A stretch of DNA of 62,583 nt from an uncultured Thermoplasmatales archaeon (GCA_965563795.1 CBEXJS010000001.1:1-62583), one strand, 5' to 3'; positions 1,478-59,202 are shown, numbered from the stretch's first letter. Program-made: numbers and translations. Notes: generated from the letters alone by a model not told the origin.

Positions 1478-2099
1478 AAATAATTTTTTTAGCCCATTCT
1501 AACTTTTTTTTCTTTGCCTCTAAATCTTTTCTTTCTTTTTGTTTTGGTTTATCAAAATTGAAACCAATTAGCTTTATTTTTTTTGCATTAAAATGTTTTG
1601 CAATGCAATAAGCTCTATCTCCATCTGTAAATCCTCCAAAATTGTATATTCCATTAAAGGGTTCTGCTTGCGTTGTAAGCATAATTTTTCCTTTAAAGCA
1701 GGAAAGATATTTTTTTAATGCATTAATATTGTCTCCATGTGCATGTATTATAACTATACTTCCTTTTTCATTTGCTTTTATAATATCATTAACATTTCCA
1801 TCTAAATCAGTTGTTATAATATCTGGCAAAATGTTATTGGAAAGTAAAATTGTTGTAGCCTCATCTGCTGCAATAATAATACCTTCTATTTCATTCAATT
1901 CTTTTTCTAAATTTTCTCCAGCTCCACATATGCTAACAACTTTTCCATTCAACATTTTTCCTAAATCCTCTGGCAAAACATTACCTTTTGCAATTTTAAC
2001 AGCTATTCTGGCTGCTTCCTCATCTTTCTTTCTGTCATATCCAAATTCTTGCAATATTTTTTCATAAATAGGCTTCCATTCTTGCCAGTTCATTCCCAT
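1464..2099 (-). CDS. MptE-like 6-hydroxymethyl-7,8-dihydropterin pyrophosphokinase (DUF115 family)
   Basis: The 211-aa ORF resembles archaeal DUF115/MptE proteins ([10 protein letters not shown] ... TTDLDG ... HAHGDN). Its ATG overlaps the guaAB stop. Confidence 0.55.
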
Positions 2100-3034
2100 T
2101 CTATAGTGGCAGGAGGTTTATTAGAAATATCATAAACTACTCTATTCACTTCCTTAATTTCATTTGTTATACGGGTTGCAATTCTTTCCAATAAATCATG
2201 AGGAAGTTTTGAATAGGAGGCTGTCATTGCATCTACGCTATCAACGCATCTTATAGCTATCGTGTATCCATAAACTCTTATATCTCCTCTAACCCCTACA
2301 CTTCTTACTGGCAATAAAACAGCAAAATATTGCCATGGCTTCTCAATGATGCCTTTTTTATATGCTTCTTCAATTTCTTCCTCTACAATTGCACAAGCTT
2401 CTCTAACAATTTCTATCTTTTTCTCATCTACCTCGCCAATAACACGTACTGCTAATCCTGGTCCTGGAAACGGCTGTCTTTCTGCAACTTCCAAACCAAG
2501 ATATCTAGCTACTTGCCTTACTTCATCTTTATATAAATCCCGCAATGGCTCAACAACTTTAAGCTTCATATCTGGCGGTAATCCACCAACATTATGATGT
2601 GTTTTTATTGTATCCCTAAGCCCCCCTCCACTCTCAATCCAGTCTGGAGCTATTGTTCCCTGTATTAAATACTCTGCTTTTTTTCCTTTTGCAATCCTTT
2701 CAAAAACTCTTACAAATTTTTCTCCTATTATTTTTCTTTTCTCCTCTGGATCACTTACCCCTTTCAAAGCATTTAAAAACTCTTCCTTTGCATCAGCATA
2801 TACAAAATCTAAGTCCATTTTTTCAAATAATCTTTTTACAAATTCTCCTTCCCCTTTCCTCATTAAACCAGTATCAACATATACTGCAGTCAAATTCTTT
2901 CCCAAAGCCATGCTTCCCAATTTTGCAGCTACAGTTGAATCTACTCCCCCAGATACAGCAATAATTGCTTTTCCTTTAACTTCCTTTTTTAAATTTTCAA
3001 CAGCTTCCTTAACAAATTTTTCCGCATCAAACAT
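2090..3034 (-). CDS. guaAB: GMP synthase subunit B (ATP pyrophosphatase)
   Basis: The PP-loop SGGVDSTV is present, with a conserved C-terminal dimerisation region ending PPATIEWE. Length is 314 aa. Confidence 0.9.
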
Positions 3035-3464
3035 ATCTTTCCCTCATCTCCTGCCTATATTCTTCCAATTTTTTCTTCAATTCCTCATCTTTCAAAGCCA
3101 AAATTTCTATTGCAAGCAAAGCAGCATTGTCTCCTCTGTCAAGCCCAACAGCAGCCACAGGAATTCCCGGAGGCATCTGAACAATAGAAAGAATTGCATC
3201 TAAATTCAGTTTGCCTGAAACAGGCACACCTATAACTGGCTTTGTTGTATAAGCTGCCAAACTACCTGGCAAAGCTGCAGACAAACCAGCTATTGCAATA
3301 AATACATCTGCATCTTTGCTGGCTATTTCCTTTATTTTCTCTGGTGTTCTGTGGGCAGAGGCATAATAAACTTCATATTCCACACCAAATTTTTCAAAAA
3401 TATCTATGGCTTTTTTGCCTACAGCTTCATCACTTTTTGATGCCATTACAATTATTACTTTCAT
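3027..3464 (-). CDS. purE: N5-carboxyaminoimidazole ribonucleotide mutase / AIR carboxylase
   Basis: The 145-aa ORF reads [12 protein letters not shown] ... SAHRTP ... GLSAALPG, a typical PurE sequence. Confidence 0.9.
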
Positions 3465-41049: not shown

Positions 41050-41517
41050 ATGATTTATGTATTAGATACATCAGCTATCTTATCTGGAAAGTTTTTTGGT
41101 GGTAAAATAGTTACATCTCCAAAGATTTTGAAAGAAATAAAACCAAAAGGACATTCATGGAGATTGTTTGAATATATGAAGAGCATAGGGCTTGAATTAA
41201 TTTCTCCTCCTCTGGTGGATGTTAAAAAGGTAGTGGAAGCTTCAAAAAAGACAGGTGACTACCATAATTTATCGGATGTTGATATTGATATATTGGCGTT
41301 AGCATATCATCTGAAAGGTATTTTATTAACTGATGATTATTCAATGCAAAATGTTGCTAAGGAACTGGGAATAAAATATATGGGCATAGTTGAAGAAGGG
41401 ATAAAAGAAAAGTGGAAATGGATTTATAGATGTAAATCTTGTGGAAAATATTATAAAGAATATCATAAAGAATGTCCTGTCTGTGGAGGAGATTTAAAAA
41501 GAGTGAGAAAAAGATAG
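41050..41517 (+). CDS. nob1: PIN-domain endonuclease with C-terminal zinc ribbon (archaeal Nob1-like, 16S rRNA 3'-end maturation)
   Basis: Has the PIN acidic residues (VLDTSAIL ... DVDIDILALA ... TDDYSMQN) followed by CKSCGKYY...CPVCGG. Confidence 0.65.
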   Translation: MIYVLDTSAILSGKFFGGKIVTSPKILKEIKPKGHSWRLFEYMKSIGLELISPPLVDVKKVVEASKKTGDYHNLSDVDIDILALAYHLKGILLTDDYSMQNVAKELGIKYMGIVEEGIKEKWKWIYRCKSCGKYYKEYHKECPVCGGDLKRVRKR

Positions 41518-41521
41518 ACAC

Positions 41522-41569
41522 ACCCCTTTATTTCCACTGGAAAATTTATATGCTATGATGAGTTTAAAA
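41522..41569 (+). promoter_or_regulatory. 48-bp promoter-like element, copy 1: palindrome TTTCCACTGGAAA (41531-41543) plus TATA tttatat (41545-41551), ending 2 nt before the hflX GTG
   Basis: It is the perfect reverse complement of 45933-45980, compared base by base. Confidence 0.7.
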
Positions 41570-41571
41570 TT

Positions 41572-42816
41572 GTGAAAGGGATAATATTATCAGCAAAAGA
41601 AGATACAAAAGAAATCAAGCAATTGGCAGAATCCTTAGGATATAAAATTGTAAGAGAGTTTGTGCAGAAAAGGGATAAAACCACACCTTACTATCTTGGA
41701 AAAGGAAAGATAGAAGAGGTTAAAAATTTTATTGAAGAAAATGTTGTAGATGTCATCATAGTAAATGATTCTCTTCGCCCCTCTCAATGGTACAACTTAG
41801 AAAAATTGCTTAGCACCCCTGTTTATGATAGAATCAGAATTATACTAGAGATTTTTGCAGATAGGGCTAAGAAAAAGGAGGCGAAACTTCAAGTTAAATT
41901 GGCAAAACTAAGATATGAGAAACCTTTTGTAAGGGAGTTATTTCACAAAGTTAAGAAAGGTGAAAAGGCAGGTTTCCTTGGAGGAGGAGAATATGTGGTT
42001 GCAGATTATTATGAAATGATAAAGAGGCAGATGAGAAAAATAAAAGAAGAATTAAAGAAAATTGCTAAAGAAAGAGATATTAAAAGAGCAGAAAGGAAAG
42101 AAAGAGGATTTTATATTGTTTCAATTGCAGGATATACAAATGCTGGAAAAAGTTGCTTATTAAATTATTTAACAGGAGAGAAGGTAGTGGTAGAAGAAAG
42201 GGTCTTCTCAACTCTCTCCCCAAAAGTAAGCAGATATAAGAAGAAAGGAGTCGTTCCTCTTTTATTCACAGATACGGTTGGATTTATAAAGGACTTGCCT
42301 CACTGGCTCATAGATGCTTTTCATTCTACTCTGGAAGAGATTGCATTAGCAGATTTAGTTATTGTATTAATTGATGCAAGTGATAGTATAGAAGAAATGA
42401 AAGAGAAAGCACTAACATCTATTAAAGAAATAAAGAGTTTAAAAGAAAATTCTCGTATTATTGTTGCATTAAATAAAATAGATTTGGTGGCAGAGGAAGA
42501 ATTAAAGAAGAAATTAAAAATAATGGAGGATTTTTTGGAAAGAAAATGCATTCCAATATCAGCAAAAACAGGCAAAAATATTGATTTGTTGCTGGAGGAG
42601 ATTTATAATAATCTGCCAAAGCCTGCAAGCTTAGAAATTACTTTGCCAAATTATGAAGATTCTTTTATTTCATGGCTTCATGAAAATGCTGAAATTTCTC
42701 ATTACCATTTCAATGGAGTAGTAAAAATAAGATTAAAGTGTAGTGAGAGAGTAAGAGATAGAATAATTGGAAAATGTAGGAAATTAGGAGGAGAGGTGAA
42801 AATATATGGAGATTGA
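41572..42816 (+). CDS. hflX: GTPase HflX
   Basis: Has G1 GYTNAGKS, G3 DTVGF and G4 NKID, with an N-terminal HflX domain. It starts at GTG; nearby ATGs are out of frame. Confidence 0.85.
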   Translation: MKGIILSAKEDTKEIKQLAESLGYKIVREFVQKRDKTTPYYLGKGKIEEVKNFIEENVVDVIIVNDSLRPSQWYNLEKLLSTPVYDRIRIILEIFADRAKKKEAKLQVKLAKLRYEKPFVRELFHKVKKGEKAGFLGGGEYVVADYYEMIKRQMRKIKEELKKIAKERDIKRAERKERGFYIVSIAGYTNAGKSCLLNYLTGEKVVVEERVFSTLSPKVSRYKKKGVVPLLFTDTVGFIKDLPHWLIDAFHSTLEEIALADLVIVLIDASDSIEEMKEKALTSIKEIKSLKENSRIIVALNKIDLVAEEELKKKLKIMEDFLERKCIPISAKTGKNIDLLLEEIYNNLPKPASLEITLPNYEDSFISWLHENAEISHYHFNGVVKIRLKCSERVRDRIIGKCRKLGGEVKIYGD

Positions 42817-43024
42817 AGAAAGAATTAAAAAAGATTTACAGAAATTTGAGGAAAACATTAAAGAAGTAAAAGATAAAAAAATAATAGATATGGCAAAAAG
42901 ATATTATGAAGATGCAAAATATTATTTTGCTAAGAAAGATTATTTCACCGCATTTGGCTGCATTAATTATGCTCATGGACTAATAGATGCTGTTAGAATG
43001 AAAATAGATAAGGAAAACTTTTAA
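42806..43024 (+). CDS. DUF357-family small protein
   Basis: The 72-aa ORF carries YYEDAKYYFAKKDYFTAFGCINYAHGLIDA and overlaps the hflX end. Confidence 0.4.
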   Translation: MEIEERIKKDLQKFEENIKEVKDKKIIDMAKRYYEDAKYYFAKKDYFTAFGCINYAHGLIDAVRMKIDKENF

Positions 43025-43043
43025 GCACTATTTGTTTTTGCAA

Positions 43044-43688
43044 ATGATGCATAAAATTGATTTACAAGTTGGCAAGGACATTTATAAAATAAACAAGGAG
43101 ATTGCAAATAAGATTAGAGAGTTATTAGATGAAAAAGGAGTGAAAGCTATAGATTTTATGGGTTCTATTGGCTCGGGAAAGACTCTAATAATTGAAAGAT
43201 TGATAGAATTGCTTAAAAATGAAAAAAAGATTGGTGTGATAGTTGGTGACGTAACCGGTGATGATGACTATAAAAGAATAAAGAAATATGGAGTTCAAGT
43301 AGTTAATATAAATACAGGAAAGGAGTGTCATTTAGATGCTCATTTAATTGAACATGCAATAGAGAATTTGAAACTGGATGAGATAGACTTATTATTTATA
43401 GAAAATATTGGTAATTTAGTTTGCCCAGCAGATTTTGAGTTAGGAAGTCATAAAAGAGGGGTTGTTATTTCAATAACTGAGGGAGATGATATGGTAAGAA
43501 AGCATCCTTTAATTTTTCAAATATCAGATTTTATTGTAATAAATAAAATAGATTTAGCGCCTTATATGGATGTAAACATAGATACAATTTTGAAAGATAT
43601 TGAACGAATCGCACCGAAGAAGGTATTCTTAACAGATGCAAAAAGTGGGAAAGGAATTAGAGAATTAGCAGAATGGCTTATAAATTAA
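43044..43688 (+). CDS. hypB: Hydrogenase nickel-incorporation GTPase HypB
   Basis: Has the P-loop GSIGSGKT, ENIGNLVCPA and NKIDL. The track ORF starts at TTG 43032; the first ATG is at 43044. Confidence 0.85.
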   Translation: MMHKIDLQVGKDIYKINKEIANKIRELLDEKGVKAIDFMGSIGSGKTLIIERLIELLKNEKKIGVIVGDVTGDDDYKRIKKYGVQVVNINTGKECHLDAHLIEHAIENLKLDEIDLLFIENIGNLVCPADFELGSHKRGVVISITEGDDMVRKHPLIFQISDFIVINKIDLAPYMDVNIDTILKDIERIAPKKVFLTDAKSGKGIRELAEWLIN

Positions 43689-44329
43689 TTTTAGTGGGAG
43701 TAGGACATGTTTTCAGGTTGGAAGACAAAATAAGAGAAATTATAGAAGAAGAGAAGCCAAATGCTATTGCTTTAGAGTTAGATGAAGAAAGAGCCATGGC
43801 TTTGGAAAAGAGAAAAGGATTTGCCAAAGGGAATTTTGTATATTCTTTACTTTCAAAAGTACAACAAATAGTGGCTTCAAAATATGGTGTGGTGGCTGGA
43901 AATGAGATGCTTTCTGCTCTAAAAATAGCTAAGGAAAACAACATCCCTATCTTATACATTGATATGAATGCTTATTTTGTAGTGCAGGAATTATGGAGAA
44001 AAATATCTATAAGGAGAAAGCTGAGTATATTTATTTCTGCAATATTAACAATGTTTATGAGTAAAGAGAGGATTGAAAAAGAGGTAAAAAAATTTGAGGA
44101 GGAACCAGAGAAATTTGAGGAGAGGATGAGAAAGATATTCCCAGAATTTGTAGAGATATTGATTGATAAAAGAAATAAGTATATGGTAAATAATCTCCTT
44201 TCATATCTTCCTATTTATAAAAAAATATTAGCTATTGTAGGAGAAGGACACATTAAAGGAATGGAAAAACTATTGGAAGATGAAGATATTGAACTTAAAA
44301 TAATACATTTAAGCCAATTAATTGAATGA
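43673..44329 (+). CDS. TraB/PrgY-family protein
   Basis: LILVGVGHVF (cf. GTAHVS) and the C-terminal VGEGHIKGM are TraB family hallmarks. It overlaps the hypB end. Confidence 0.55.
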   Translation: MAYKLILVGVGHVFRLEDKIREIIEEEKPNAIALELDEERAMALEKRKGFAKGNFVYSLLSKVQQIVASKYGVVAGNEMLSALKIAKENNIPILYIDMNAYFVVQELWRKISIRRKLSIFISAILTMFMSKERIEKEVKKFEEEPEKFEERMRKIFPEFVEILIDKRNKYMVNNLLSYLPIYKKILAIVGEGHIKGMEKLLEDEDIELKIIHLSQLIE

Positions 44330-45928
44330 TATAAATTCGGATATATCTTTTCCTATTAGATTTATTAATTCTTCAACATTATTTATTGGTCTATTTCTAA
44401 TAATTTTAACTGCTAATTTTTCTCCTATCCCTGGTATATTTTTTATTGCTGAAAATGGTGCATTATTTATTTTGAGAGGATATTCAATAGCAGTTACACT
44501 TCTATAAGAATGATCAATAATTTTTACATTTACAAACTTATTTATGTCTAATTTATATGGAATACAAACTAAGATTGGATAGCTTCCTATTTGTCTGCCA
44601 AAAGTGTTATTTCCAATATTTATTTCTAAATAAACATCTTTTAAAATAGTTCCTTTAGGTAGAATTTTTCTTAGCATTGGTTTATTTATTCCTTCATTTA
44701 CTTTTCTTTTAAATTTCTTAAATTTTTCTTTATCAATCTTTATTTTCTCTCCTTTTAAATAGACGACTTGTCTTATATTTATTCTCCTTAGCAAAAACCC
44801 TCTGTCTAAAACATCTTTTAAAAATTTAAAATTCTTTGAATATGTTTCAGCTCTCTCACCTTTTAAGCCGATGAGTATATTTATTCCTGGCAAAAAGCGA
44901 GGCATGCCATTTTTTCCTCTTTCCCCGCCAATCTCATTTATAATTTCTATTGCTTTCATTACCTGTTCTGGCGTGGCATTTAGATTATTCTCTTTAATTA
45001 CTTTTTCATCTGCACTTTCCATGCCAAATGCTGCTGTGTTTCCCGGGGAGCAATATTTAACTATTAACTCTGCTATTTTAATACTCTCTTCTTCCCACTC
45101 TGCAACTACAGCCGGATTTACATTGTCTATATGAAGTACATTTGGTTTTAGTTTATATATGCCTTCCAATAATCTTTTTATTACATTTACATTTGGTTTG
45201 GGCAATTCATCTTTACCTAATCTATGAGCTTTATAAGAGAAAAAACAGGATTGACAACCTAAACGAAAATTCACAACTCCATGTTTTCTAAGTTCCTTTA
45301 CTTCTTTGATAATGTCTTTTTCCTCCCTTACTTGAGGCATTCCAAAAGAAGGTTCCATGCAAAAATTGCACCCTCCTGTGAACCATCTTGTGCACCCTCT
45401 ATATGTTTCTATTTCAGCAATTAAAGGAATAGGATAGTCTGGATGCTGTTTAACAACTTCTACACCTAATACACTCCATCTTTTCCATTCTTCTTTTTTT
45501 CTAATTCTATGATTTATTTCACCATTTAAAAAATCATAAATAAAAGCATCAGCATCTCCTAAAGCAACATAATCAACAAATTTATCTCCTTTAACTAATT
45601 TCTTCCCTCCTCCTCTGCCAAACCCAAATTTTGCAGAGGCGCCAACCAATATTTTTATTCCCTTAAAATTTTTACAAATTCTAACAAATTCTTTATATGA
45701 GATTGGCATTCCGCGCAAATATCTTCCAGGTACTATTGCACCAGCTAAAATAACGAGTATATCTCCTTTTATCCTTCTTCCTTTCCTCCAATCTTCAATA
45801 GTAAAATATTCATATTCTTCTCCGGCATCTTTTATTGCACCTGCAATATATCTGGCATATGGAGAAATAAAGGGAGGAACTCCCAAACAAGCTGGTTCAT
45901 CGACAAAGCCATCTAATATTGTTATCAT
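44318..45928 (-). CDS. Radical SAM protein (COG1031/MJ_1487-like) with C-terminal helix-hairpin-helix
   Basis: The 536-aa ORF has a cluster region (YRGCTRWFTGGCNFC) and the C-terminal HhH IPGIGEKLAVKIIRNRP. Confidence 0.5.
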   Translation of the reverse strand: MITILDGFVDEPACLGVPPFISPYARYIAGAIKDAGEEYEYFTIEDWRKGRRIKGDILVILAGAIVPGRYLRGMPISYKEFVRICKNFKGIKILVGASAKFGFGRGGGKKLVKGDKFVDYVALGDADAFIYDFLNGEINHRIRKKEEWKRWSVLGVEVVKQHPDYPIPLIAEIETYRGCTRWFTGGCNFCMEPSFGMPQVREEKDIIKEVKELRKHGVVNFRLGCQSCFFSYKAHRLGKDELPKPNVNVIKRLLEGIYKLKPNVLHIDNVNPAVVAEWEEESIKIAELIVKYCSPGNTAAFGMESADEKVIKENNLNATPEQVMKAIEIINEIGGERGKNGMPRFLPGINILIGLKGERAETYSKNFKFLKDVLDRGFLLRRINIRQVVYLKGEKIKIDKEKFKKFKRKVNEGINKPMLRKILPKGTILKDVYLEINIGNNTFGRQIGSYPILVCIPYKLDINKFVNVKIIDHSYRSVTAIEYPLKINNAPFSAIKNIPGIGEKLAVKIIRNRPINNVEELINLIGKDISEFISFN

Positions 45929-45932
45929 TTTG

Positions 45933-45980
45933 TTTTAAACTCATCATAGCATATAAATTTTCCAGTGGAAATAAAGGGGT
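45933..45980 (-). promoter_or_regulatory. 48-bp promoter-like element, copy 2 (inverted), ending 4 nt before the radical SAM ATG
   Basis: It is the perfect reverse complement of 41522-41569. It lies between the DP1 stop (45988) and the radical SAM start (45928). Confidence 0.7.
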
Positions 45981-45987
45981 CTCTCCT

Positions 45988-47433
45988 TCAAAAAGCTACA
46001 ATGCTTGGCATAAAATTCTTTAAATTTACAACCACTGCCTTGCCAGGATCAGGCATAAAATTCATCATTCTTTGATAATCAGTTTGTGACTGCCATGCAG
46101 ACGCATTTATCATCAATACTCCTCTATAACTATCTACAGCTGTTACATGCACATGTCCTGTTACAAATATATCTGGTATATAATCAATAATTAGGTAATC
46201 TTTCCTTTCAGGTGCTAAAGAGGAAATCCCTCCATAAATAGGGGCGAGATGGCGTCGCCTTAGCATTTCCTTCATTATTTTTGTTGGCTCATTTTGATTC
46301 ATCCCAGGCACGCATGAAGCGAAATCTTGTATGGATTGTCCATGATATGCTAAAATAGTAATACCATTTATTTTCATATAACAAGGATTTCCAATGAACT
46401 CAATATTGCTTGAGGTAAAGAATTCTCTAAGCTCTTTTTCAAAAGCTGGCTGTGGTAAAGCAGGGCGGACAGCATCATGATTGCCTGGCTGTAAGATAAT
46501 TTTAATTCTTTCAGGAATTTGGGATAACTTGTCAGCCAACTCTTCATATTGTTTATAAATATCTTCTATATCCAAATCCTTTTCCTGCCCAGGATAGATT
46601 CCGACGCCTTCTACGTCATCTCCACAAATAATTAAATATTCTATCTTTTCTGCAACTTTTCTCTGTCTCTCACTCCCACTCTTTCCATTAATCCATTTTA
46701 TGAATTTTTCCCATTTATCTTCTAAAAAACTTTTACTCCCTACATGTAAATCAGAAATAAAGGCAATGTATTTCTCCTCATTTGTTAGCTTTTTTTCCTT
46801 TTCCACAGGCAATTCAGGTCTAACAATACTTTTCGCAATGAGCAAATCCCCTTTTCTTTTTCCTACAACACCAATAACCTCATCATTAACAATTGCAGAA
46901 TCAATTTCTCTTGAAACATAAACTGAAATCATATCTTCTTCATCCTCAATTTCAACAATGAGTCCATTTTTTGCATTTCTAACATCTTTGACCAATCCTA
47001 TGGTAGCAATTTCATCATCGCTCCTCCATACTTTTTTAATTGGAACCGCATTTCTCATCTCTTGTCTTTTCCTAAGCATTTTACTTAACTTTTCAAATCT
47101 ATCCTTAAATAACAATACAAAATCTTCCAATCGTCCTTCACAAGTGCTATTTCCTGTTATATCTCTCAATATCTCAAACCCATCCTCATCTATTTTTACA
47201 ACAGGAGCAACTTTTCTTTCAATAGGTTTTATTTTCTCCTCAACTTTTTCCTCTTTAACAAACCTCTTCAAAAAATCAACAGACACAATAAGAGGTTTTG
47301 TATCAAGCTCTTTAATAAATTTTTTACAAAATTCCATACCATTCCCTCTACTAATTAAAAATTCAACTGCATCAGGCTGAATAAGCATGCCTTCCTTTTG
47401 AAATAAATTCACAATTTCCCGCTTCAGATCCAT
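45988..47433 (-). CDS. DNA polymerase II (PolD) small subunit DP1
   Basis: Has calcineurin-like phosphoesterase motifs (SDLHVGS, CGDDVEG, GNHD, GHVH) and an OB-fold region. Length is 481 aa. Confidence 0.8.
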   Translation of the reverse strand: MDLKREIVNLFQKEGMLIQPDAVEFLISRGNGMEFCKKFIKELDTKPLIVSVDFLKRFVKEEKVEEKIKPIERKVAPVVKIDEDGFEILRDITGNSTCEGRLEDFVLLFKDRFEKLSKMLRKRQEMRNAVPIKKVWRSDDEIATIGLVKDVRNAKNGLIVEIEDEEDMISVYVSREIDSAIVNDEVIGVVGKRKGDLLIAKSIVRPELPVEKEKKLTNEEKYIAFISDLHVGSKSFLEDKWEKFIKWINGKSGSERQRKVAEKIEYLIICGDDVEGVGIYPGQEKDLDIEDIYKQYEELADKLSQIPERIKIILQPGNHDAVRPALPQPAFEKELREFFTSSNIEFIGNPCYMKINGITILAYHGQSIQDFASCVPGMNQNEPTKIMKEMLRRRHLAPIYGGISSLAPERKDYLIIDYIPDIFVTGHVHVTAVDSYRGVLMINASAWQSQTDYQRMMNFMPDPGKAVVVNLKNFMPSIVAF

Positions 47434-47440
47434 TTTTTAG

Positions 47441-47766
47441 CCGGCACAGACACGCCACCAAGTGGGCACACGCCACCAAGCATGATTGCCCCAGTACCCT
47501 TCTCAATCCCGCTACCCTCTGAGCACCGGTAGTTTCCGGCTGGGCTGCTCCCTTCCGGGCCTAACCCGTTGGCCGGAATAAAGGCAAAGGAGCAAACCCT
47601 CCAGTTTGCTCCTTTGCCACCTCCAGCCCCAGAGGACGAGATTTCATCGGCAGATACTGGATCATGCTTGGCGACGTATGCCGCCTCGGCAGCTTCGGCT
47701 CCGGCTAAAGACGATTTCCGGTAACAGGGGACGCCTAACCCCCCAGCCTAGTCTGTGCCATTGGCC
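47441..47766 (-). ncRNA. Signal recognition particle RNA (archaeal 7S/SRP RNA)
   Basis: This island of about 326 nt is GC-rich in an AT-rich background. The minus strand contains GGCCCGGAAGGGAGCAGCC, the helix-8 GNAR tetraloop and symmetric loop (cf. E. coli 4.5S GGUCCGGAAGGAAGCAGCC). The 5' GGCACAGAC pairs with the 3' GUCUGUGCC. A TATA-like aaatttatt lies about 25 nt upstream. The ends are approximate. Confidence 0.85.
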
Positions 47767-50015: not shown

Positions 50016-50327
50016 CTATGCATACATTATATTATCGCTTTTTTCATCATCTACTTTTTTAATTTTTCCTTTCTTTTTCTTTATAAACTTATATTGCTTC
50101 CTTTTCCCAACAAATCTTATATCAAATCTAATTAGCCTAACAAAAGTTTTATCTGGCAATGGCTCTAAAACTAAAATCCCTCTATTTTGCAACTTTAACA
50201 ATTCAGTTTTTGTTCTTTCCTTGCTTATACCCAATTTTTTACTCATTTCTTCCAAAGTAATAGGATATTGACTCTGTAAAATTTTAATGATTCTTTCTTC
50301 CAAAGTCCCTATTTTTATTTCAATCAT
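50016..50327 (-). CDS. Winged-helix DNA-binding protein with a basic tail
   Basis: Has EERIIKILQSQYPITLEEMSKKLGISKERTKTELLKLQNRGIL and a Lys-rich C-terminus. It overlaps the hypD stop by 8 nt. Confidence 0.45.
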   Translation of the reverse strand: MIEIKIGTLEERIIKILQSQYPITLEEMSKKLGISKERTKTELLKLQNRGILVLEPLPDKTFVRLIRFDIRFVGKRKQYKFIKKKKGKIKKVDDEKSDNIMYA

Positions 50328-51381
50328 TTTTATATCTGTACTCTATATTACAAGCTCCTTCTGCAGAAACCATGCAAGGACCAACTGGATTGGAAGGATT
50401 GCAAATTCTACCAAATAAAGGGCAGTCCTGAGGACATATTAATCCTCTAAGCACTTCTCCACACCTACATCCCTTAGGTTCTGGTGGCACTTCCATGTCT
50501 TCTATTAAATCTTCATATATTTTATCTGCGTCAAAATCTTCAAATTTATCCTTTATTTTCATTTTTGATTGTTTTATTACAGGAAAACCCCTCCATTTTG
50601 CATCTGCTGGCTCAAAAACTTCCTTTAAAACCTCTTTTGCCTTTAAATTTCCCTCTTTCTTTACACATCTTATATATTCATTCTCCACCTCATATCTTCC
50701 TTCTTCGATTTGCTTTACAATCATATATACTGCCATTAATACATCCAAGGGCTCGAAACCAGCTATTACATGCGGAATTTTATATTTTTTAGCAATAGGC
50801 TCATATGGCATCATGCCTATAATTGTAGAGACATGCCCAGGACAAATTATCCCATCAATTTTTACTTCTCCCATTCCAAGCAATGCATCTAAAGCAGGAG
50901 GGATATATCGATGGAAGCTAAGCACCGAAAAATTTTTAGGCTCTTTAAGCAAACTTACTGCAGTTGATGGAGCAGTTGTTTCAAAACCAACACCAAGAAA
51001 GATTATTTCCTTTTCCTTAGCCATTTTTATTGCATCATCTATGCTGTAAACAATTTTAACATCTGCTCCATCAGCTCTTACTTTTTCAAGCGATTTTTTT
51101 CCTGCAGGCACTTTTATCATATCTCCAAAAGTAGCAATCGTCTTTCCTTTCTCTGCTAAAAGAATAGCTTTGCTTATTTCCTCAGAAGTAGTAACACATA
51201 CTGGACAACCTGGTCCTTGAATTAACTCAATGCCAATTTTCCTTAATAAGTTATCTAATCCATATTTTACAATAGTATCTTGATGTGTTCCACATACATG
51301 CATTATTTTCAATTTTAAGTTTGCTTTCTTTATTTTTTCCAATAATTTTTCGGCAATATTTCTATCTCTTAATTGTAGCAT
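50320..51381 (-). CDS. hypD: Hydrogenase maturation protein HypD
   Basis: Carries GPGCPVCV, GFETTAP, CPGHVST and the C-terminal Cys cluster. The ATG at 51381 gives MLQLRDRNIAEKL; the track start is GTG 51402. Confidence 0.85.
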   Translation of the reverse strand: MLQLRDRNIAEKLLEKIKKANLKLKIMHVCGTHQDTIVKYGLDNLLRKIGIELIQGPGCPVCVTTSEEISKAILLAEKGKTIATFGDMIKVPAGKKSLEKVRADGADVKIVYSIDDAIKMAKEKEIIFLGVGFETTAPSTAVSLLKEPKNFSVLSFHRYIPPALDALLGMGEVKIDGIICPGHVSTIIGMMPYEPIAKKYKIPHVIAGFEPLDVLMAVYMIVKQIEEGRYEVENEYIRCVKKEGNLKAKEVLKEVFEPADAKWRGFPVIKQSKMKIKDKFEDFDADKIYEDLIEDMEVPPEPKGCRCGEVLRGLICPQDCPLFGRICNPSNPVGPCMVSAEGACNIEYRYKND

Positions 51382-51754
51382 CTTCAATCTCCATCTCAAC
51401 ACTTTTTATATTACATTCTCTCCCTTTTACAATCTCAACATTTTTTCCACAATTTGGGCATTTTAATATAGGAAAATATATATGAAATTCATCTTTAAGT
51501 CCATATTCAACCCCACCTTCATAACCACAATAATTACATTTAATTTTAGCCTTTACATCCTCTATAACAAGCTCAGCTTTTTCCATAATAGTTCCTTCCT
51601 TTAATATATCAAATGCAAATTTTAATTGCTCCTTGCCCAAAAATGTAAGTTCTCCAATCTGTAAAATAACTTTACTTATCTCCTTTGCATTATGCTTTTT
51701 TGCTTCTTCTAGAACTGCATTTACAATTGATTGCATGGTTGAAAACTCATGCAT
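51362..51754 (-). CDS. hypA: Hydrogenase nickel-insertion protein HypA
   Basis: Has the N-terminal MHE nickel site and the zinc site CNYCG ... CPNCG. Length is 130 aa. Confidence 0.85.
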   Translation of the reverse strand: MHEFSTMQSIVNAVLEEAKKHNAKEISKVILQIGELTFLGKEQLKFAFDILKEGTIMEKAELVIEDVKAKIKCNYCGYEGGVEYGLKDEFHIYFPILKCPNCGKNVEIVKGRECNIKSVEMEIEDATIKR

Positions 51755-52440: not shown

Positions 52441-55400
52441 ATGAAAAAGTTGTTACTTATAATTGGGGTTTTGTTTCTAGTTGCCGTTACAATTCCACTT
52501 GGTTTAGAAGCAGAGCCAGCGCAAAATGCATCAGTTACAATAACATGGACAGATGGCAAGCATAACTATGAAAAAAATACTCTTACAGGTATAAATGGGT
52601 ATTATGAGTTTTCTTTGCCAGTGGGAAATGCAAATATATCTGCAGAATATAGTAAACAAAGAGGAAACGAATATATTACTGTAAGTAATTCAACAGGATA
52701 TTTTGTTGTAGATGGCACAGAATGGAAAAATATTACTCTGCCTGCTTCTCCAGAAGACACAGTTTTAATAAAAGGGCATGTATATGATAATAAAACTGGC
52801 ATGCCTATAGCAAATGCAAATGTGAGTGCTACATTTCATAATGATTTCTTCTATGGGTTTAATTTCACTTTTAGCGATGAAAATGGCTATTATGAATTAT
52901 GGGTTCCGGCATCAAATATAACTATTGGAGCAGTTGCAGGCGGATACTATTATGATGTAAAAATGCTAGGAACTGTTGGAGCTGGTGAAACAAGAAATGT
53001 TGATTTGTGTTTGGAACCATTGGTAGGCATTGTTAAGGGATATATTAAAGATAAGGACACTGCCTTGCCAATAAAAAATGCATATGTTATGATTTTTGGA
53101 AGAAATACATCTTTTGGAAATGTTACATTCAGCAATGATTCAGGCTATTATGAGTTTAGAGTAATTGAAGGAAATATGTCAGTAATGGTTGAAGCAAGTG
53201 ATTATTTTGATGCGATAATACCTCCATTTTATGTTGGGGTTGGAGAAACAAAATGGGTCAATATTACAATGACGCATTTTGTTGATGACAATGCGTGGGT
53301 GGTAGGGCGTGTTTTAGATAAGAATAACCAACCGATATCAAATGCAAACGTTAGTGTTGTTGGTTCTATCACTCTATTTGGAAAAATAGGTGATTTTGTA
53401 AGAGAAGGTAAAACAGATGCAATAGGTCATTACAACATTTCTGTTCCAGCATATGCATTGCCATATGGTATGACAACCATTTATTCTGTTGTAGCAGAAA
53501 AAGAAGGATATTTTGCAAATAGCACCTCAGGCACTATTCAAATCTTTCCAGGAGAAACAAAGTATATGGATGATATTTATCTTGAGCAGAAGCCACCAGA
53601 AAACTGCGTTGTTAAAGGATATGTTTATATAAAGTCAGTGCCAACTAAAAAAATACATTATGTTGGTGGTACTGGATCAGGAAACTACACAACTATACAA
53701 GAAGCAATAAATGCTGCAAGTGATGGCGACATAATAAAAGTTTATCCTGGCACGTACGATGGACCAATTGTTATAAACAAGGAAATAAAGCTTATCGGAG
53801 ACCCTGTCATAGATGGACATGGTGATTATGGAATAAAAATCGAAGCTAATAATACGCTTGTAGAGAATTTCACCGTGTTTAATTGTTCATATGGAATATA
53901 TGCTCGAAATCTCTCCTTCACATTGCATAACATTACCATAAGAAATTGTACAGTTTATGATTGTGAAAATTATGGCATTTGGATGCATTATGCCAACGAT
54001 GTATTTGTTGAAAATAACACCATATACAATGTTTCAATGGCAGGCATAGTCATATGGTATGCAAATGGTGGAGGTATTAAGAATAATGAGATATTTGACA
54101 GTGGAAATGCTTTGCCAATTTCAGGATGTAGCAATTTGGTAATTTCAGGCAATAAAATACATGATAATAGCGGTGATGGAATAAAGATAACTGGTAACTC
54201 AATACACAACAAAATAATAGCAAACCATGTTTATAACAATACAGGATATTATGGCGGAATTTATGTATACACAAGCCATTACAATGAAATAACTGATAAT
54301 CACATCTATAACAATACAAAATATGGAATATATATTGATGGCTCACATGACAATACAATCTCTCACAATTATGTATATAAGAATGGTTACGATGGCATCT
54401 ATCTAACGCAGGATGGCAATAATAACTCCATTTCCTCAAACCCAGTTTATAATAATTCACGGTACGGCATTATTGTATACGGTTCCAATAATACGATCAA
54501 TAATAATAGTATTCATCACAATCAAAACGGCATAGTCATTAAAGATACAGCAACGAATAATAACATAACGCTAAACAAAATGGAGAATAACAGCATATGC
54601 GGAATATATCTTATAGGAGATAGTAATACCGTAAAATCAAATTCTATGATATACAACGGTTATGGCATCCATATATTGGGAAGCAATAATACAATACTCT
54701 CCAATGAAATTGCAAATTGTAATCGTGGCGTATATGTTGGAGAGACAGCAAAAAACAATGAAATAAAAGATAATAACATACAAGATTCATCATCATATGA
54801 AATGCGTATTTATGGTCAAAACAATATATTCACAAATAATACAATCAATTCAACAAAGTTTTCATTTACCTATGGAGGCAATTTAACCATTAAAGATGCT
54901 TCTATGCCAGCATTGCCACCTCCTCACTGGCAGAGCATTGGCAAATTCTTGAAAATAGAAAAGTTGGATAGCAAGCCAGCATGGATGAACATAAGAATTT
55001 ATTATGATGATAGCGATGTTGTTGGCTTATATGAATTTACTCTTAAAATATGGAAATATGCCGGAAGTTGGCAAGAAGATGGATGGAATGGAACCCGTTA
55101 TCTGGATATGATAAACAACATTGTTGGTGTGAATATAACTTCATTCAGCATTTTTGCCCCTCTTGCCATGACACCAAATCATTTGCCTTATGCAACAAAT
55201 CCAAATCCTGTAAATGGAAGCACTGATGTTTCAACAAATCCAACTTTGAGCGTAGTTGTTCATGATGAAGATGGCGATACTTTAAATGTTTCATTCTATG
55301 ATGCTTCCAGTGATACTTTAATTGGCTATGTTGATGGTGTTTTGCCAGGAAATACAGCAAGCATAGTATGGAGTGGTTTGTCGCAAGGAACAACATATTA

Positions 55401-58400
55401 CTGGTATGTTATACTAAATGACAGTTATGAAGAAAATAAAAGCGATGTATGGCATTTCACAACAACACTTCCGAAGCCTACCGTCGTGTATGTAGATGAT
55501 GATTATGATAGCAGCACCTCAGGATGGGGATATGACCACTTTGCTAACATAACAGATGGAATAAATGGTGTGGCGAGTGGAGGTATAGTGTATGTTTATG
55601 AAGGAGTTTATGAAGAAAGTATAGGGATAAATAAGAAAGTGAGTATAATTTCATTGAATGGAACGGCAAATACAATAATAAAGGCAAGTGGGCAGAATGC
55701 GGTGACTATGAATTATCCATGCTTATTGGATGGCTTTACCATAAGAGATGCTCATGCAGATTATGACAATGTGAGAGGAATATGGGTTAAGGCAGATGGA
55801 TGTATAATAAAAAATGTAACCATAACAAATATTACTGCTATTCAAAATGAAAGCAAAGTCATATACACATATGGAATAATGATTAACTATGCTGACAACT
55901 GCATCATTGAAAATGTAACAATATACGACATAGAAGGAAATGACTCAACAGCATATGGAATATATGTGCATGAGTCAGACAATGATTCATTCAAGAACAT
56001 AACAATATTCAACATTACCTCTGTAAGCACTGCCTATGGAATGTATATTTCATATGGCGAAAACAGCGAGCTTGTTGGTATAAATATAGACAATGTAGAT
56101 GGAAGTAGCTCATATGGAATTCGCACTGGCTATGCAGACAATAATATCTTAAGATGGATAAATGTAATGGAGAGTAAGTATGGAATAGCCCTTGATTCTT
56201 ATAGTGATTACAACATCATTGAAAATTGTGTTGTTGCTAATAACACGCTCTATGGAATAATAATTGGCAGAGCTACATACAATATAATTAAAAATAATAA
56301 CGTGCATGACAACAGATATGGCATAACCTTATGGATAGATTGTTATAACAACACGATAGAAAATAATACCATTTTCAGTAATGATTATTATGGGGTATAT
56401 TTCTATTCAGAAAATATGCTCAATATAATAAAAGGGAATGTCATTTACAATAATCAATATGGCATTTATCTTAACGAGTTAGCAGGAAACAATACAATCT
56501 TTTCTAACTACATATATAATAATGCAGTTGATGGTATGAGGATTTATTCCGGTTACAACAATATCTCATTTAATCACGTTTACAATAATTCCAAATATGG
56601 CATCCTTATTTCCTCAGGTGAAAGCAACACAGTATATGCAAATTATATTCATGACAATGGAGAGGATGGTATAAGGATATCCAGTTATTCCTCAAATAAT
56701 ACAATCATTTCCAACAACATCTACAACAATTCAGATGATGGAATAAAGTTATATTATTATACAGACGGTAACATCATAAAGAACAATTATATCTACAACA
56801 ATTCAGATGGAATAGAAATAAGTTATAAGAATCATACAAACAATGTTATCCGTGGCAATTTCATCTATAACAACAGATATAATGGCATATTCTCTGATGC
56901 TATTGCCATAAATAACACCATCATGGACAATGAAATTTACGATAATGGAAACAATGGAATTTATATCAAAAGTGGTGGCAAATTTAATAGCATCCTAAAT
57001 TGCGACATTTATTCAAATGGATATTACGGTATAAGATTAGAAAACAGCATTAATAATACCATTTCAGACTGCAATATTTATTTAAATGGAGATGATGGCA
57101 TATTGATTTACAGCAATAGCAATAATAACAGCATTTCCAACTGCAATATCTATTCGAATAATGATTTTGGCATTTGGATTTCCACTTCAAGCAATTACAA
57201 TAATATCTCTGGTTGTAACATTCATTCAAACAAAAATACAGGCGTGGGCATGGGATTTTCTAGCATTCATAATGTAATCTACGATTGTAATATTTATGAC
57301 AACGGAGGAGATGGCGTTTATATCAGTTCATCAAATAATGTAATATCTGGTTGTAACATTTCAAATAACTATAGAGGAATAAATATACAGGCATCAAGCA
57401 ACGAAATCAAATCAAATTATATAACTGGAAATCAATACGGCATTTATATAGGCAGTGTGAATAACAACATCATTTACAACAACTACTTCAACAACACAAT
57501 AAACGCCTATGATGAAGGAAACAACATATGGAATATAAGCAAGACAGCTGGAACAAACATCATAGGCGGTGCATGGCTCGGCGGCAACTACTGGCATGAT
57601 TATGCTGGTAATGATACAGATGGAGATGATTTGGGCGATACAATGCTTCCATACAATTGCTCAGGCAATATTGCAAATGGTGGAGACTGGCATCCGTTGC
57701 TTGTGCCAACAAATCATCCGCCTGCTGTGCCATATAATCCAACACCTTCAGATGGAGCTACAGATGTTGAATTGGATGTAACATTGCAATGGCAATGCTA
57801 TGATCCAGATGGAGATGCTTTGAGTTATGACATATATTTTGGTTTGTCATCGTCTTCGCTGGAAAAGAAAGCAGGCAACATAACATCTGCTTCATACCCC
57901 ATAAGCAATCTTCAATATTCAACAACTTATTACTGGCGTGTAGTTGCATGGGATGAATATGGAGCTAAAAGCATTGGGCCGGTATGGAGCTTTACAACAA
58001 AAGAAGATACACCACCTGCAGTAAGCAATCCGCACCCTGCAAATGGAAGCACTGGCATAGCCATAAATCCGATACTTGCTGTTGATGTTGATGATGCTGA
58101 TGGAGATATGTTGACTGTAACATTTTATGATGCCTCTGATGACAGCGTTATAGGAATGGTAGAGAATGCTTCTCCTGGAAGTACAGTTAGCATAGTATGG
58201 CAAGGCTTACAGTATTCAACAACCTATTCATGGTATGTTATTGTAAGTGATGGTATTAAAAGTACAAAATCCCCAACATGGACTTTCACAACAAAAGCAA
58301 AGCCACAATACACTCTTACAGTTTCAGTAAATCCTGAAGGAGCGGGAATCATTTCAATGAATCCTGCTGGTGGAGTATATGAAGAAGGCACTATAGTTAC

Positions 58401-59202
58401 ATTGACTGCAATAGCAAATGAAGGATATGTTTTTGCTTACTGGAGTGGAGATGCTTCTGGAACAAATCCAACAATTCAAATTATAATGAATAGCAATAAG
58501 AATATTATAGCAAATTTCCAGTTGCCGAACACTCCGCCACAAATAGAAATTACAGAGCCAGAAAATGGAACAGTTGTTTCTGGCGTTTTAATGATACAGG
58601 GAAAAGCATGGGATATGGATGGAAATGATACTTTGCAAAAAGTAGAAATAAGAATAGATGGAGGAGAGTGGAAGGAGGCAGAGGGAACAACATTATGGAG
58701 TTATTCATGGGATACAACAAAAGTTGCAAATGGATGGCATACCATTGAAGCAAGAGCTTATGATGGAATAGATTATAGCAATATAGCAAAAATAACAGTA
58801 AATGTGCAAAATGTTGAAAATAATCCTCCAGAAATAGAAATTACAGAACCAATGAATGGAAGCGTTGTTAAAGGAAGCATTGTTGTTAAAGGAAAAGCAT
58901 GGGATAAAGATGGAAATGAAAGCTTAGTCAAAGTAGAAATAAGAATAGATGGAGGAGAATGGAAAGAAGCAACGGGAACAATAAATTGGGCTTATACATT
59001 GGATACAACTAAATTAAGCAATGGATGGCACACTATAGAAATAAGAGCCTATGATGGCATAGATTATAGCAATATAGCAACTACAAAGATAAATGTGCAA
59101 AATGAAAAAGAAGAAAAAGGCATGCCTTGGTTAATTATTGGGGTGGTAATAGTTATTATAGCAATAGTAGCAATAGCTGTGCTATATCTAAGGAAGAAGT
59201 AA
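52441..59202 (+). CDS. Giant (2253 aa) cell-surface protein built from CarboxypepD_reg-like, beta-helix, FN3-like, InlB B-repeat-like and Ig-like modules, with a C-terminal TM anchor
   Basis: Has a signal peptide (MKKLLLIIGVLFLVAVTIPLGLEA). From the N-terminus it carries CarboxypepD_reg-like repeats (G.V.D..TG.PI.NANVS...D.NGYYE), then two right-handed parallel beta-helix blocks. The beta-helix blocks show a 22-23 aa periodicity (N.I..N...GI.I..S..N.I). Three FN3-like modules, an InlB B-repeat-like module (YTLTVSVNPEGAG...GYVFAYWSGDASG) and two Ig-like modules follow. The C-terminus is MPWLIIGVVIVIIAIVAIAVLYLRKK. There are very many N-x-S/T sequons. Confidence 0.75.
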   Translation: MKKLLLIIGVLFLVAVTIPLGLEAEPAQNASVTITWTDGKHNYEKNTLTGINGYYEFSLPVGNANISAEYSKQRGNEYITVSNSTGYFVVDGTEWKNITLPASPEDTVLIKGHVYDNKTGMPIANANVSATFHNDFFYGFNFTFSDENGYYELWVPASNITIGAVAGGYYYDVKMLGTVGAGETRNVDLCLEPLVGIVKGYIKDKDTALPIKNAYVMIFGRNTSFGNVTFSNDSGYYEFRVIEGNMSVMVEASDYFDAIIPPFYVGVGETKWVNITMTHFVDDNAWVVGRVLDKNNQPISNANVSVVGSITLFGKIGDFVREGKTDAIGHYNISVPAYALPYGMTTIYSVVAEKEGYFANSTSGTIQIFPGETKYMDDIYLEQKPPENCVVKGYVYIKSVPTKKIHYVGGTGSGNYTTIQEAINAASDGDIIKVYPGTYDGPIVINKEIKLIGDPVIDGHGDYGIKIEANNTLVENFTVFNCSYGIYARNLSFTLHNITIRNCTVYDCENYGIWMHYANDVFVENNTIYNVSMAGIVIWYANGGGIKNNEIFDSGNALPISGCSNLVISGNKIHDNSGDGIKITGNSIHNKIIANHVYNNTGYYGGIYVYTSHYNEITDNHIYNNTKYGIYIDGSHDNTISHNYVYKNGYDGIYLTQDGNNNSISSNPVYNNSRYGIIVYGSNNTINNNSIHHNQNGIVIKDTATNNNITLNKMENNSICGIYLIGDSNTVKSNSMIYNGYGIHILGSNNTILSNEIANCNRGVYVGETAKNNEIKDNNIQDSSSYEMRIYGQNNIFTNNTINSTKFSFTYGGNLTIKDASMPALPPPHWQSIGKFLKIEKLDSKPAWMNIRIYYDDSDVVGLYEFTLKIWKYAGSWQEDGWNGTRYLDMINNIVGVNITSFSIFAPLAMTPNHLPYATNPNPVNGSTDVSTNPTLSVVVHDEDGDTLNVSFYDASSDTLIGYVDGVLPGNTASIVWSGLSQGTTYYWYVILNDSYEENKSDVWHFTTTLPKPTVVYVDDDYDSSTSGWGYDHFANITDGINGVASGGIVYVYEGVYEESIGINKKVSIISLNGTANTIIKASGQNAVTMNYPCLLDGFTIRDAHADYDNVRGIWVKADGCIIKNVTITNITAIQNESKVIYTYGIMINYADNCIIENVTIYDIEGNDSTAYGIYVHESDNDSFKNITIFNITSVSTAYGMYISYGENSELVGINIDNVDGSSSYGIRTGYADNNILRWINVMESKYGIALDSYSDYNIIENCVVANNTLYGIIIGRATYNIIKNNNVHDNRYGITLWIDCYNNTIENNTIFSNDYYGVYFYSENMLNIIKGNVIYNNQYGIYLNELAGNNTIFSNYIYNNAVDGMRIYSGYNNISFNHVYNNSKYGILISSGESNTVYANYIHDNGEDGIRISSYSSNNTIISNNIYNNSDDGIKLYYYTDGNIIKNNYIYNNSDGIEISYKNHTNNVIRGNFIYNNRYNGIFSDAIAINNTIMDNEIYDNGNNGIYIKSGGKFNSILNCDIYSNGYYGIRLENSINNTISDCNIYLNGDDGILIYSNSNNNSISNCNIYSNNDFGIWISTSSNYNNISGCNIHSNKNTGVGMGFSSIHNVIYDCNIYDNGGDGVYISSSNNVISGCNISNNYRGINIQASSNEIKSNYITGNQYGIYIGSVNNNIIYNNYFNNTINAYDEGNNIWNISKTAGTNIIGGAWLGGNYWHDYAGNDTDGDDLGDTMLPYNCSGNIANGGDWHPLLVPTNHPPAVPYNPTPSDGATDVELDVTLQWQCYDPDGDALSYDIYFGLSSSSLEKKAGNITSASYPISNLQYSTTYYWRVVAWDEYGAKSIGPVWSFTTKEDTPPAVSNPHPANGSTGIAINPILAVDVDDADGDMLTVTFYDASDDSVIGMVENASPGSTVSIVWQGLQYSTTYSWYVIVSDGIKSTKSPTWTFTTKAKPQYTLTVSVNPEGAGIISMNPAGGVYEEGTIVTLTAIANEGYVFAYWSGDASGTNPTIQIIMNSNKNIIANFQLPNTPPQIEITEPENGTVVSGVLMIQGKAWDMDGNDTLQKVEIRIDGGEWKEAEGTTLWSYSWDTTKVANGWHTIEARAYDGIDYSNIAKITVNVQNVENNPPEIEITEPMNGSVVKGSIVVKGKAWDKDGNESLVKVEIRIDGGEWKEATGTINWAYTLDTTKLSNGWHTIEIRAYDGIDYSNIATTKINVQNEKEEKGMPWLIIGVVIVIIAIVAIAVLYLRKK
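58534..59103 (+). repeat. Tandem duplication (2 x about 291 bp) inside the giant CDS, encoding two Ig-like modules
   Basis: Segment 58534-58824 and segment 58825-59103 align base by base with high identity (ccacaaatagaaattacagagcc... versus ccagaaatagaaattacagaacc...). Both end in aatgtgcaaaatg. Confidence 0.8.

Follow-up and report, generated by a model that had tools for sequence, protein, structure and literature searches.

Inverted putative origin recognition boxes, each joined to a promoter, bracket a five-gene cassette beside dp1 in Thermoplasmata archaea

We analyzed a 62,583-base stretch of DNA from an uncultured Thermoplasmatales archaeon (GCA_965563795.1, CBEXJS010000001.1:1-62583; the window, hereafter), in which a perfect inverted repeat brackets a five-gene cassette beside dp1, the gene that encodes the small DNA polymerase D (PolD) subunit. 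Homologues of its genes place the host in the Thermoplasmata/Thermoplasmatota, among metagenome-assembled genomes (MAGs) from hydrothermal settings. Four of the five genes form a unit on the plus strand that begins with the GTPase gene hflX (41572..42816, with a GTG start codon at 41572; Pfam GTP-bdg_N, GTP-bdg_M and MMR_HSR1) and continues with a DUF357 protein (42806..43024; PF04010), a HypB-like G3E GTPase of the cobW/HypB/UreG family (43032..43688; PF02492) and traB, which encodes a TraB/PrgY/GumN family protein (43673..44329; PF01963). The fifth gene converges with this unit from the minus strand and encodes a radical SAM enzyme with a C-terminal helix-hairpin-helix (HhH) motif (44318..45928; Pfam Radical_SAM and HHH_3). 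Outside the repeat lie a nob1-like gene with PIN and zinc-ribbon domains on the left (41050..41517, plus strand; Pfam PIN_6) and dp1 on the right (45988..47433, minus strand; Pfam DNA_pol_E_B and Metallophos). Open reading frame (ORF) calling and Pfam searches upheld every gene label of an initial annotation of this DNA.

The left arm of the repeat (41522-41569, plus strand) is the exact reverse complement of the right arm (45933-45980) over 48 nt, and the match widens to 53 nt at 96% identity (41517..41569 on the plus strand and 45933..45985 on the minus strand). Exactly two copies are present in the window when up to three mismatches are allowed, and zero are expected from 100 shuffles. The perfect part of the left arm begins 4 nt past the nob1-like stop codon and that of the right arm 7 nt past the DP1 stop codon. 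Between the arms are 4,363 bp of coding sequence, the sole non-coding DNA being the 20-22 nt from TATA box to start codon on each side. Each arm carries a 13-nt dyad, TTTCCA-C-TGGAAA (41531-41543 and 45959-45971), followed after 1 nt by a TATA box, TTTATAT (41545..41551 on the plus strand, mirrored at 45951..45957 on the minus strand). The initial annotation had reported an exact inverted repeat of 48 bp, with a palindrome and a TATA box in each arm, filling the short spacers after two co-directional genes, and all of these elements are found where it placed them.

The first T of the TATA box lies at -27 from the hflX GTG (41572) and at -29 from the radical SAM ATG (45928), leaving 20 and 22 nt between the box and the respective start codon. 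Four other genes of the window (6460, 17010, 21932 and 29290) are preceded by strict TATA boxes whose first T falls between -25 and -29; the geometry of the arms is therefore that of the genome's normal leaderless promoters, and both arms resemble leaderless promoters, as had been supposed. The inner half of the dyad, GGAAAA, stands directly 5′ of the TATA box, in the position of the transcription factor B recognition element (BRE), and is purine-rich; this placement follows known archaeal promoter architecture.

Among the cis elements of archaeal replication, origin recognition boxes (ORBs) are the best defined. On the opposite strand, each arm reads TTTCCAGTGGAAATAAAGGGGT and has the architecture of an ORB: a G-string, a 4-nt linker and a TTCCA-N-TGGAA dyad. 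The left element occupies 41522..41543 on the minus strand, its G-string (ACCCC on the plus strand) lying at 41522-41526, and the right element 45959..45980 on the plus strand, with the G-string at 45976-45980. The element agrees at 21 of 22 positions with ORB2 of Methanomassiliicoccus luminyensis, itself one of the Thermoplasmata, GTTCCAGTGGAAATAAAGGGGT, and fits the archaeal ORB consensus, CTTCCAGTGGAAACGAAAGGGGT (Borrel et al., Table 2; PMC4153887), as well as the euryarchaeal consensus, GTTCCAGTGGAAAC-AAA----GGGGG (Norais et al.). It contains the 13-mer ATTTCCACTGGAA found in ORB1-3 and the mini-ORB probes of P. furiosus; Cdc6/Orc1 binds these probes in gel shifts, and they include CCCCCC-AGAGTTTC-ATTTCCACTGGAAC (PMC1904270). 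The dyad core, TTCCA-N-TGGAA(A), is present in both arms as TTTCCAGTGGAAA and is identical to the published ORB core. The G-string keeps its consensus spacing, the window and M. luminyensis both reading GGAAA-TAAA-GGGGT and the consensus GGAAAC-GAAA-GGGGT. By these comparisons the arms are canonical archaeal ORBs, and thus putative recognition sites of the replication initiator Orc1/Cdc6, each fused to a putative promoter. The initial annotation had treated the palindrome as an anonymous regulated element; the dyad is real, but what had been taken for an unnamed operator is a canonical ORB with its G-string, ACCCC. Since the palindrome is an ORB dyad with a G-string, the shared regulator that was expected would be Orc1/Cdc6 itself.

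A dyad beside a TATA box is also typical of archaeal operators, and its spacing here fits a leaderless promoter. The two leaderless promoters could consequently be co-regulated by an ordinary transcription factor other than Orc1/Cdc6, with the identity of the arms reflecting a recent duplication. We consider this quite improbable. The dyad and its correctly spaced G-string together match a published ORB at 21 of 22 positions, the asymmetric G-string is conserved like the dyad although a dimeric operator would not need it, and, as described below, the ORB pair is ancient.

We searched metagenomes for a G-string combined with the dyad, the TATA box being optional, and at least 120 contigs from very diverse archaea matched. 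Among the matches listed, which are mostly short contigs, 18 encode an Orc1 homologue (probed with the Orc1/Cdc6 of contig L091). The orc1 gene lies within about 420 bp of the ORB in 12 of these 18 and at 1.3-10 kb in the remainder, which indicates that the combination of G-string and dyad picks out real origins. L080, L095 and L091 contain close inverted pairs, spaced by about 470 bp, about 140 bp and 1.7 kb respectively, the last of them around orc1; in all three, the dyads point inward and the G-strings outward, and the window pair has the same polarity. A TATA box directly follows the dyad in only about 10 of the at least 120 matches listed. In L056, from an uncultured archaeon, an ORB dyad directly joined to a TATA box (3103-3122) lies about 90 bp 5′ of orc1 (1849-3012, minus strand), and it looks like an autoregulatory ORB-promoter fusion. 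Fusions of this kind thus exist at the initiator's own promoter as well.

Two further groups of matches came to light. In Methanosarcinales, a conserved ORB-TATA element reads CCCC-TTTA-TTTCCACTGGAAAGTTTATATAAC and is followed by a GC-rich stretch, likewise conserved, ACCC..GGACCCCATGGTTTC (L044 7745-7764; L055 1717-1736; L085; L108 4822-4841; L109 733-714). It lies 1.6-2 kb from cdc6 in L044, L108 and L109, and beside a TnpB-like gene in L055. The downstream stretch matches no Rfam family; it could be an unannotated small RNA expressed from an ORB-linked promoter. In Woesearchaeota contigs, a conserved ORB-like sequence with a G-string, CCCCATYATTTCCACTGGAA, lies inside a 212-aa ORF and is preceded by TGATGATTG repeats (L006 2513-2532; L038 2411-2430; L127; L165). 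By analogy with Pyrococcus dp1, it may be an ORB within coding sequence. Both the Methanosarcina and the Woesearchaeota matches, which might be put down to chance, share the G-string. The bacterial matches to the 20-mer have no G-string and look like chance.

When the dyad-TATA 20-mer was scanned in one genome per GTDB species, it was found at 53 loci. About 25 Thermoplasmata MAG species carry it, nearly always as a plus/minus pair 3.5-4.9 kb apart. In the relatives that have the cassette, one copy always directly follows the DP1 stop codon, the two copies are always 5′ of hflX and of the radical SAM gene, and the gene content is conserved as hflX-DUF357-hypB-like-traB facing radical SAM-HhH, always beside dp1; DP1 adjoins one ORB in every species examined. 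The comparison of orthologous loci that the initial annotation had proposed thus recovers the same ORB-TATA pair and cassette in some 25 related species. Within the clade genomes, the 20-mer occurs at the two cassette borders and in no other context, which argues against a dispersed repeat or a regulon; the genome-wide regulon that had been proposed for the 48-mer is not borne out, and the question whether the element is a common dispersed repeat is answered in the negative for the ORB-TATA core.

Two outgroups were found through DP1, L187 (DP1 58% identical) and L188 (DP1 49% identical, 55% GC), and both have the cassette with an ORB at each border. Apart from the ORB itself, the two spacers of the GC-rich L188 have little in common. 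Since lineages with a DP1 identity of only 49% still have the pair, it is not a recent duplication, contrary to what had first been suggested. Conservation of the G-string and linker over 44 copies from 24 species is 0.85; it falls to 0.40 farther upstream and to about 0.55 on the downstream side of the TATA box. Neither G-string nor linker was part of the search pattern, so that their conservation is free of it. On the G-string side, the sequence extends in relatives to GGGGGGTGGGT. This conservation indicates that the ORB is under clade-wide selection, in genomes that range from 31% to 55% GC. Neither cassette nor ORB is present in L059 and L061, which hold distant radical SAM genes, or in L189, which holds a distant DP1; the arrangement is accordingly limited to the clade.

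The distance between dyad and TATA box is likewise constant: every clade member keeps the 1-nt juxtaposition, as does the radical SAM copy in L188, and this suggests that the ORB-TATA fusion is itself functional. The same observation bears on the possibility that the ORBs titrate the initiator or act as insulators away from any origin, and overlap the promoters only incidentally. Such a role has precedents, as a separate, non-origin ORB cluster can negatively control an origin (the ORB-rich region at oriC2 in Haloarcula) and orphan ORBs exist in Methanomassiliicoccales. There are two sites here only and no cluster, however, and the conserved juxtaposition argues for a functional fusion, so that we find titration or insulation improbable.

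The two copies in a given genome match perfectly for 22-77 nt, the length in the window being 48 nt. The identity reaches through the GTG start codon in several genomes, and in AUK247 and L025 the final 13 nt of DP1 belong to it too, being present on the distal copy (the one away from dp1) as well. Past the core, the next 16 nt are the same in 9 of 20 pairs from one genome and in 1 of 760 comparisons across genomes, and the mean identity is 0.79 within and 0.46 between genomes. In the closest relative, L032/L037 (about 90% protein identity), the copies differ from each other at two positions, both of them uniform in the window. Because the copies agree within a genome while their non-ORB parts differ between genomes, they evolve in concert, and the arms appear to be kept identical by gene conversion, one of the options raised by the initial annotation.

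The orientation of the cassette relative to dp1 differs between species. In 14 species, including both outgroups, the order is DP1, ORB, hflX (state A); in nine, including the window, it is DP1, ORB, radical SAM (state B). Since both outgroups are in state A, the window has the derived, flipped state. On a neighbor-joining tree of DP1, the orientation changes at least six times, and sister taxa and independent assemblies agree. A comparison of L001 (state A) with JdFR-43 (state B) reveals the same outer flanks and exchanged inner flanks, which locates the crossover inside the shared ORB-TATA segment. On this comparative evidence, the repeats have mediated repeated inversion of the 4.4-kb block during the evolution of the clade, as the initial annotation had thought possible. 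A single staggered-break inverted duplication, in which the pair would be the footprint of a one-off inversion, was rejected, as both orientations already carry the pair in relatives. The window, L183, L185 and L190, which are four independent assemblies of the same species, are all in state B with the same 48-mer, and no second orientation was seen among them; the inversion is therefore an evolutionary event and not a visible population-level switch.

Inverted repeats that bracket a segment found in both orientations among species could also be the mark of a programmed, inverton-like switch, in which a site-specific recombinase would use the palindrome as its core site. This is very improbable. 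Single orientations are found in the four assemblies of this species and in several assemblies of others, no recombinase gene lies beside the cassette (the integrase in L183 sits in a strain-specific insertion), and the length of identity varies between 22 and 77 nt, as homologous recombination predicts. Moreover, the two promoters are identical, so flipping would alter little.

The ends of many contigs at the repeat might instead point to the terminal inverted repeats of a mobile element, or to assembly artefacts behind the differences between states A and B. We regard both as extremely improbable. The outer flanks (GACAC and CTCTC) contain no target-site duplication and no transposase is present; the locus is always beside dp1, with two copies per genome. 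The varying ends of the identical tract favor gene conversion over a discrete mobile unit. As to artefacts, sister species and independent assemblies share their orientation, and the repeat is shorter than the reads in most genomes. The MAG and Logan contigs that end in or at the repeat include L184, L186, L008, L020, L023, L035, L042, L049 and L053; at about 50 bp, the repeat systematically breaks up the clade's short-read assemblies, and the Logan contigs were built with k=31.

The reading that we consider probable is that the arms are Orc1/Cdc6-controlled promoters descended from a dp1-linked origin neighborhood. Orc1/Cdc6 would bind both arms, and its footprint would cover the BRE position and abut the TATA box, placing it in competition with TFB and TBP. 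Occupancy of the sites by the initiator would consequently govern how both the hflX unit and the radical SAM-HhH gene are transcribed, most likely by repression; we infer the direction of regulation, repression or activation, purely from the overlap of the footprints. The arm sites would descend from an ancestral oriC neighborhood linked to dp1. Thermococcales, Halobacteriales and Methanosarcinales all conserve the linkage of oriC, cdc6 and dp1. Since each gene set retains an identical promoter in either orientation, the inversions would be neutral, a by-product of homologous recombination between two repeats held under functional constraint.

Several observations weigh against this reading. 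No orc1/cdc6 gene was found in the 62.5-kb window (Pfam analysis of all ORFs of 360-396 aa and others; tblastn with the L091 Orc1), nor within 10 kb of the cassette in any relative (tblastn with the same protein). The 20-mer was the search pattern for most relatives, so that its perfect conservation is partly a matter of ascertainment, and only L187, L188, L132 and L135 were found independently of it. Furthermore, the orientation calls come from short-read MAG assemblies, several of which break at the repeat.

The control of promoters by Orc1/Cdc6 is compatible with a further possibility, that the pair is itself a working 'split' oriC or part of one. Its inward-facing ORBs would act 4.4 kb apart, with the AT-rich promoter regions as unwinding elements and possibly with the aid of transcription. 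An archaeal oriC is expected to contain at least two inverted, facing ORBs, and the window has these at full length and canonical in sequence, with their dyads inward and their G-strings outward. The directly adjacent dp1 is a conserved origin neighbor, PolB and a NUDIX gene are nearby, Pyrococcus and Methanomassiliicoccales have ORB clusters that flank a whole gene (cdc6), as does L091, and the ORBs are kept even where their flanks are not. In contrast, 3.5-4.9 kb of coding DNA lies between the ORBs, and an AT-rich duplex unwinding element (DUE) is found neither in this interval nor next to the arms. The adjacent orc1/cdc6 gene, which is typical though not universal, is absent from the window and from every cassette locus. 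No further ORB or mini-ORB sites beyond chance occur in the window, and the GC skew across its 62 kb only tracks the gene strand. We therefore hold a role in replication initiation to be possible and no firmer than tentative. In its most specific form, both arms would make up the functional chromosomal origin of the clade, a split one that has no initiator gene beside it. Melting of the promoters at the TATA boxes would unwind the DNA for helicase loading, and recombination associated with the origin would homogenize the two halves and flip the genes between them; this form is rather unlikely.

Comparison with known systems shows where the locus departs from them. The ORBs of oriC1-type origins in Sulfolobus, Pyrococcus, Haloferax/Haloarcula and Methanomassiliicoccales share with the window the succession of dyad, linker and G-string, the inward pairing and the linkage to dp1. 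Their ORBs, however, enclose an AT-rich unwinding element of 40-500 bp, whereas those of the window are 4.4 kb apart and enclose five genes, lack an adjacent orc1/cdc6, and are each joined to a TATA box that precedes a start codon by 20-22 nt. Closer in layout are the Thermococcales, in which ORB clusters lie on either side of cdc6 and inside dp1 and are bound by Cdc6 in vivo in Pyrococcus (Matsunaga et al. 2007; PMC1904270), and 'Ca. Methanomethylophilus alvus', with ORB pairs on both sides of orc1/cdc6.1 (Borrel et al. 2014; PMC4153887). As in the window, the ORBs bracket genes kilobases apart and adjoin dp1 or fall inside it. In these known cases, what the ORBs enclose is the initiator gene itself, and to one side there is an ordinary origin with a DUE; in the window, the enclosed genes are hflX, DUF357, hypB-like, traB and radical SAM, and a DUE is not evident.

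Sites of the initiator family close to promoters are also known, both as ORBs over the orc1 promoter and through Orc1-2, a regulator of the DNA damage response in Sulfolobales whose motif is ANTTTC and not an ORB (PMC6061795). The window differs from these cases in that its site is a full-length ORB, present in duplicate and located at genes other than orc1. The inverted repeats that flank bacterial origins, such as rRNA operons and insertion sequence copies, resemble the arms in undergoing homologous inversion and gene conversion. The arms are only about 50 bp long, however, consist of regulatory or initiator-site sequence and are maintained across a whole clade. In the searchable literature, we found no prior description of a cassette bracketed by ORB-promoter fusions.

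The locus adds to what is known of these elements. To our knowledge, ORBs have almost always been described as clusters around a short unwinding element beside orc1/cdc6. In the present locus, a full-length ORB is joined to a core promoter and occurs twice, in origin-like polarity, around five genes beside dp1. It offers a test bed for whether a replication initiator doubles as a transcription factor for non-replication genes (the operon of the ribosome-associated GTPase HflX and a putative DNA-binding radical SAM enzyme), for the distance that inverted ORBs can span and still act as an origin, and for initiator binding sites as hotspots of gene conversion and rearrangement. ORB-based origin predictors that require an adjacent cdc6 would miss this locus.

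The outer flank of the distal ORB is highly variable between species and may hold LeuRS, nob1, a gene for a 379-aa protein or a tRNA gene, which suggests a rearrangement hotspot; the nob1-like gene takes this position in the species of the window only. LeuRS lies 13 kb from the cassette in the window and abuts it in L001. In L187 (11435-11480 and 15985-16060), the distal ORB begins at an apparent tRNA 3′ end, and the flank shared with L135 indicates that the ORB there apparently does likewise, both being judged by eye. The spacer between DP1 and ORB in L187 contains four tandem AT-rich repeats, TTATCA..CTTTT. Past the nob1-like gene, L183 (16568-21385) has a different set of genes, a phage-type integrase and several small ORFs, and at the same position the window and L185 encode proteins of 454 and 346 aa. 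The insert in L183 is probably an integrated element near tRNA-Cys or tRNA-Ile genes.

The surroundings of the cassette in the window include two tRNA genes and, immediately adjoining DP1, the archaeal signal recognition particle RNA (47444-47758, minus strand; Rfam RF01857, 253 bits), which forms a 53% GC island within the 31% GC genome. A few kilobases from the hypB-like gene of the cassette, the minus strand encodes HypD (50320-51402) and a further ORF (51362-51754); the corresponding position in L183 has hypC-hypA-hypD. A 2,253-aa ORF occupies 52441-59202 on the plus strand; the L183 homologue carries NosD/beta-helix repeats. L059 (10001-19815) and L061 (9034-12707) contain distant orthologues of the radical SAM-HhH enzyme, 52-55% identical, which are convergent with herA-nurA-rad50-mre11 or lie between a xerA-like integrase gene and ftsZ. 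These neighbors hint at, and are compatible with, a DNA-related role of this uncharacterized enzyme of the COG1031 type.

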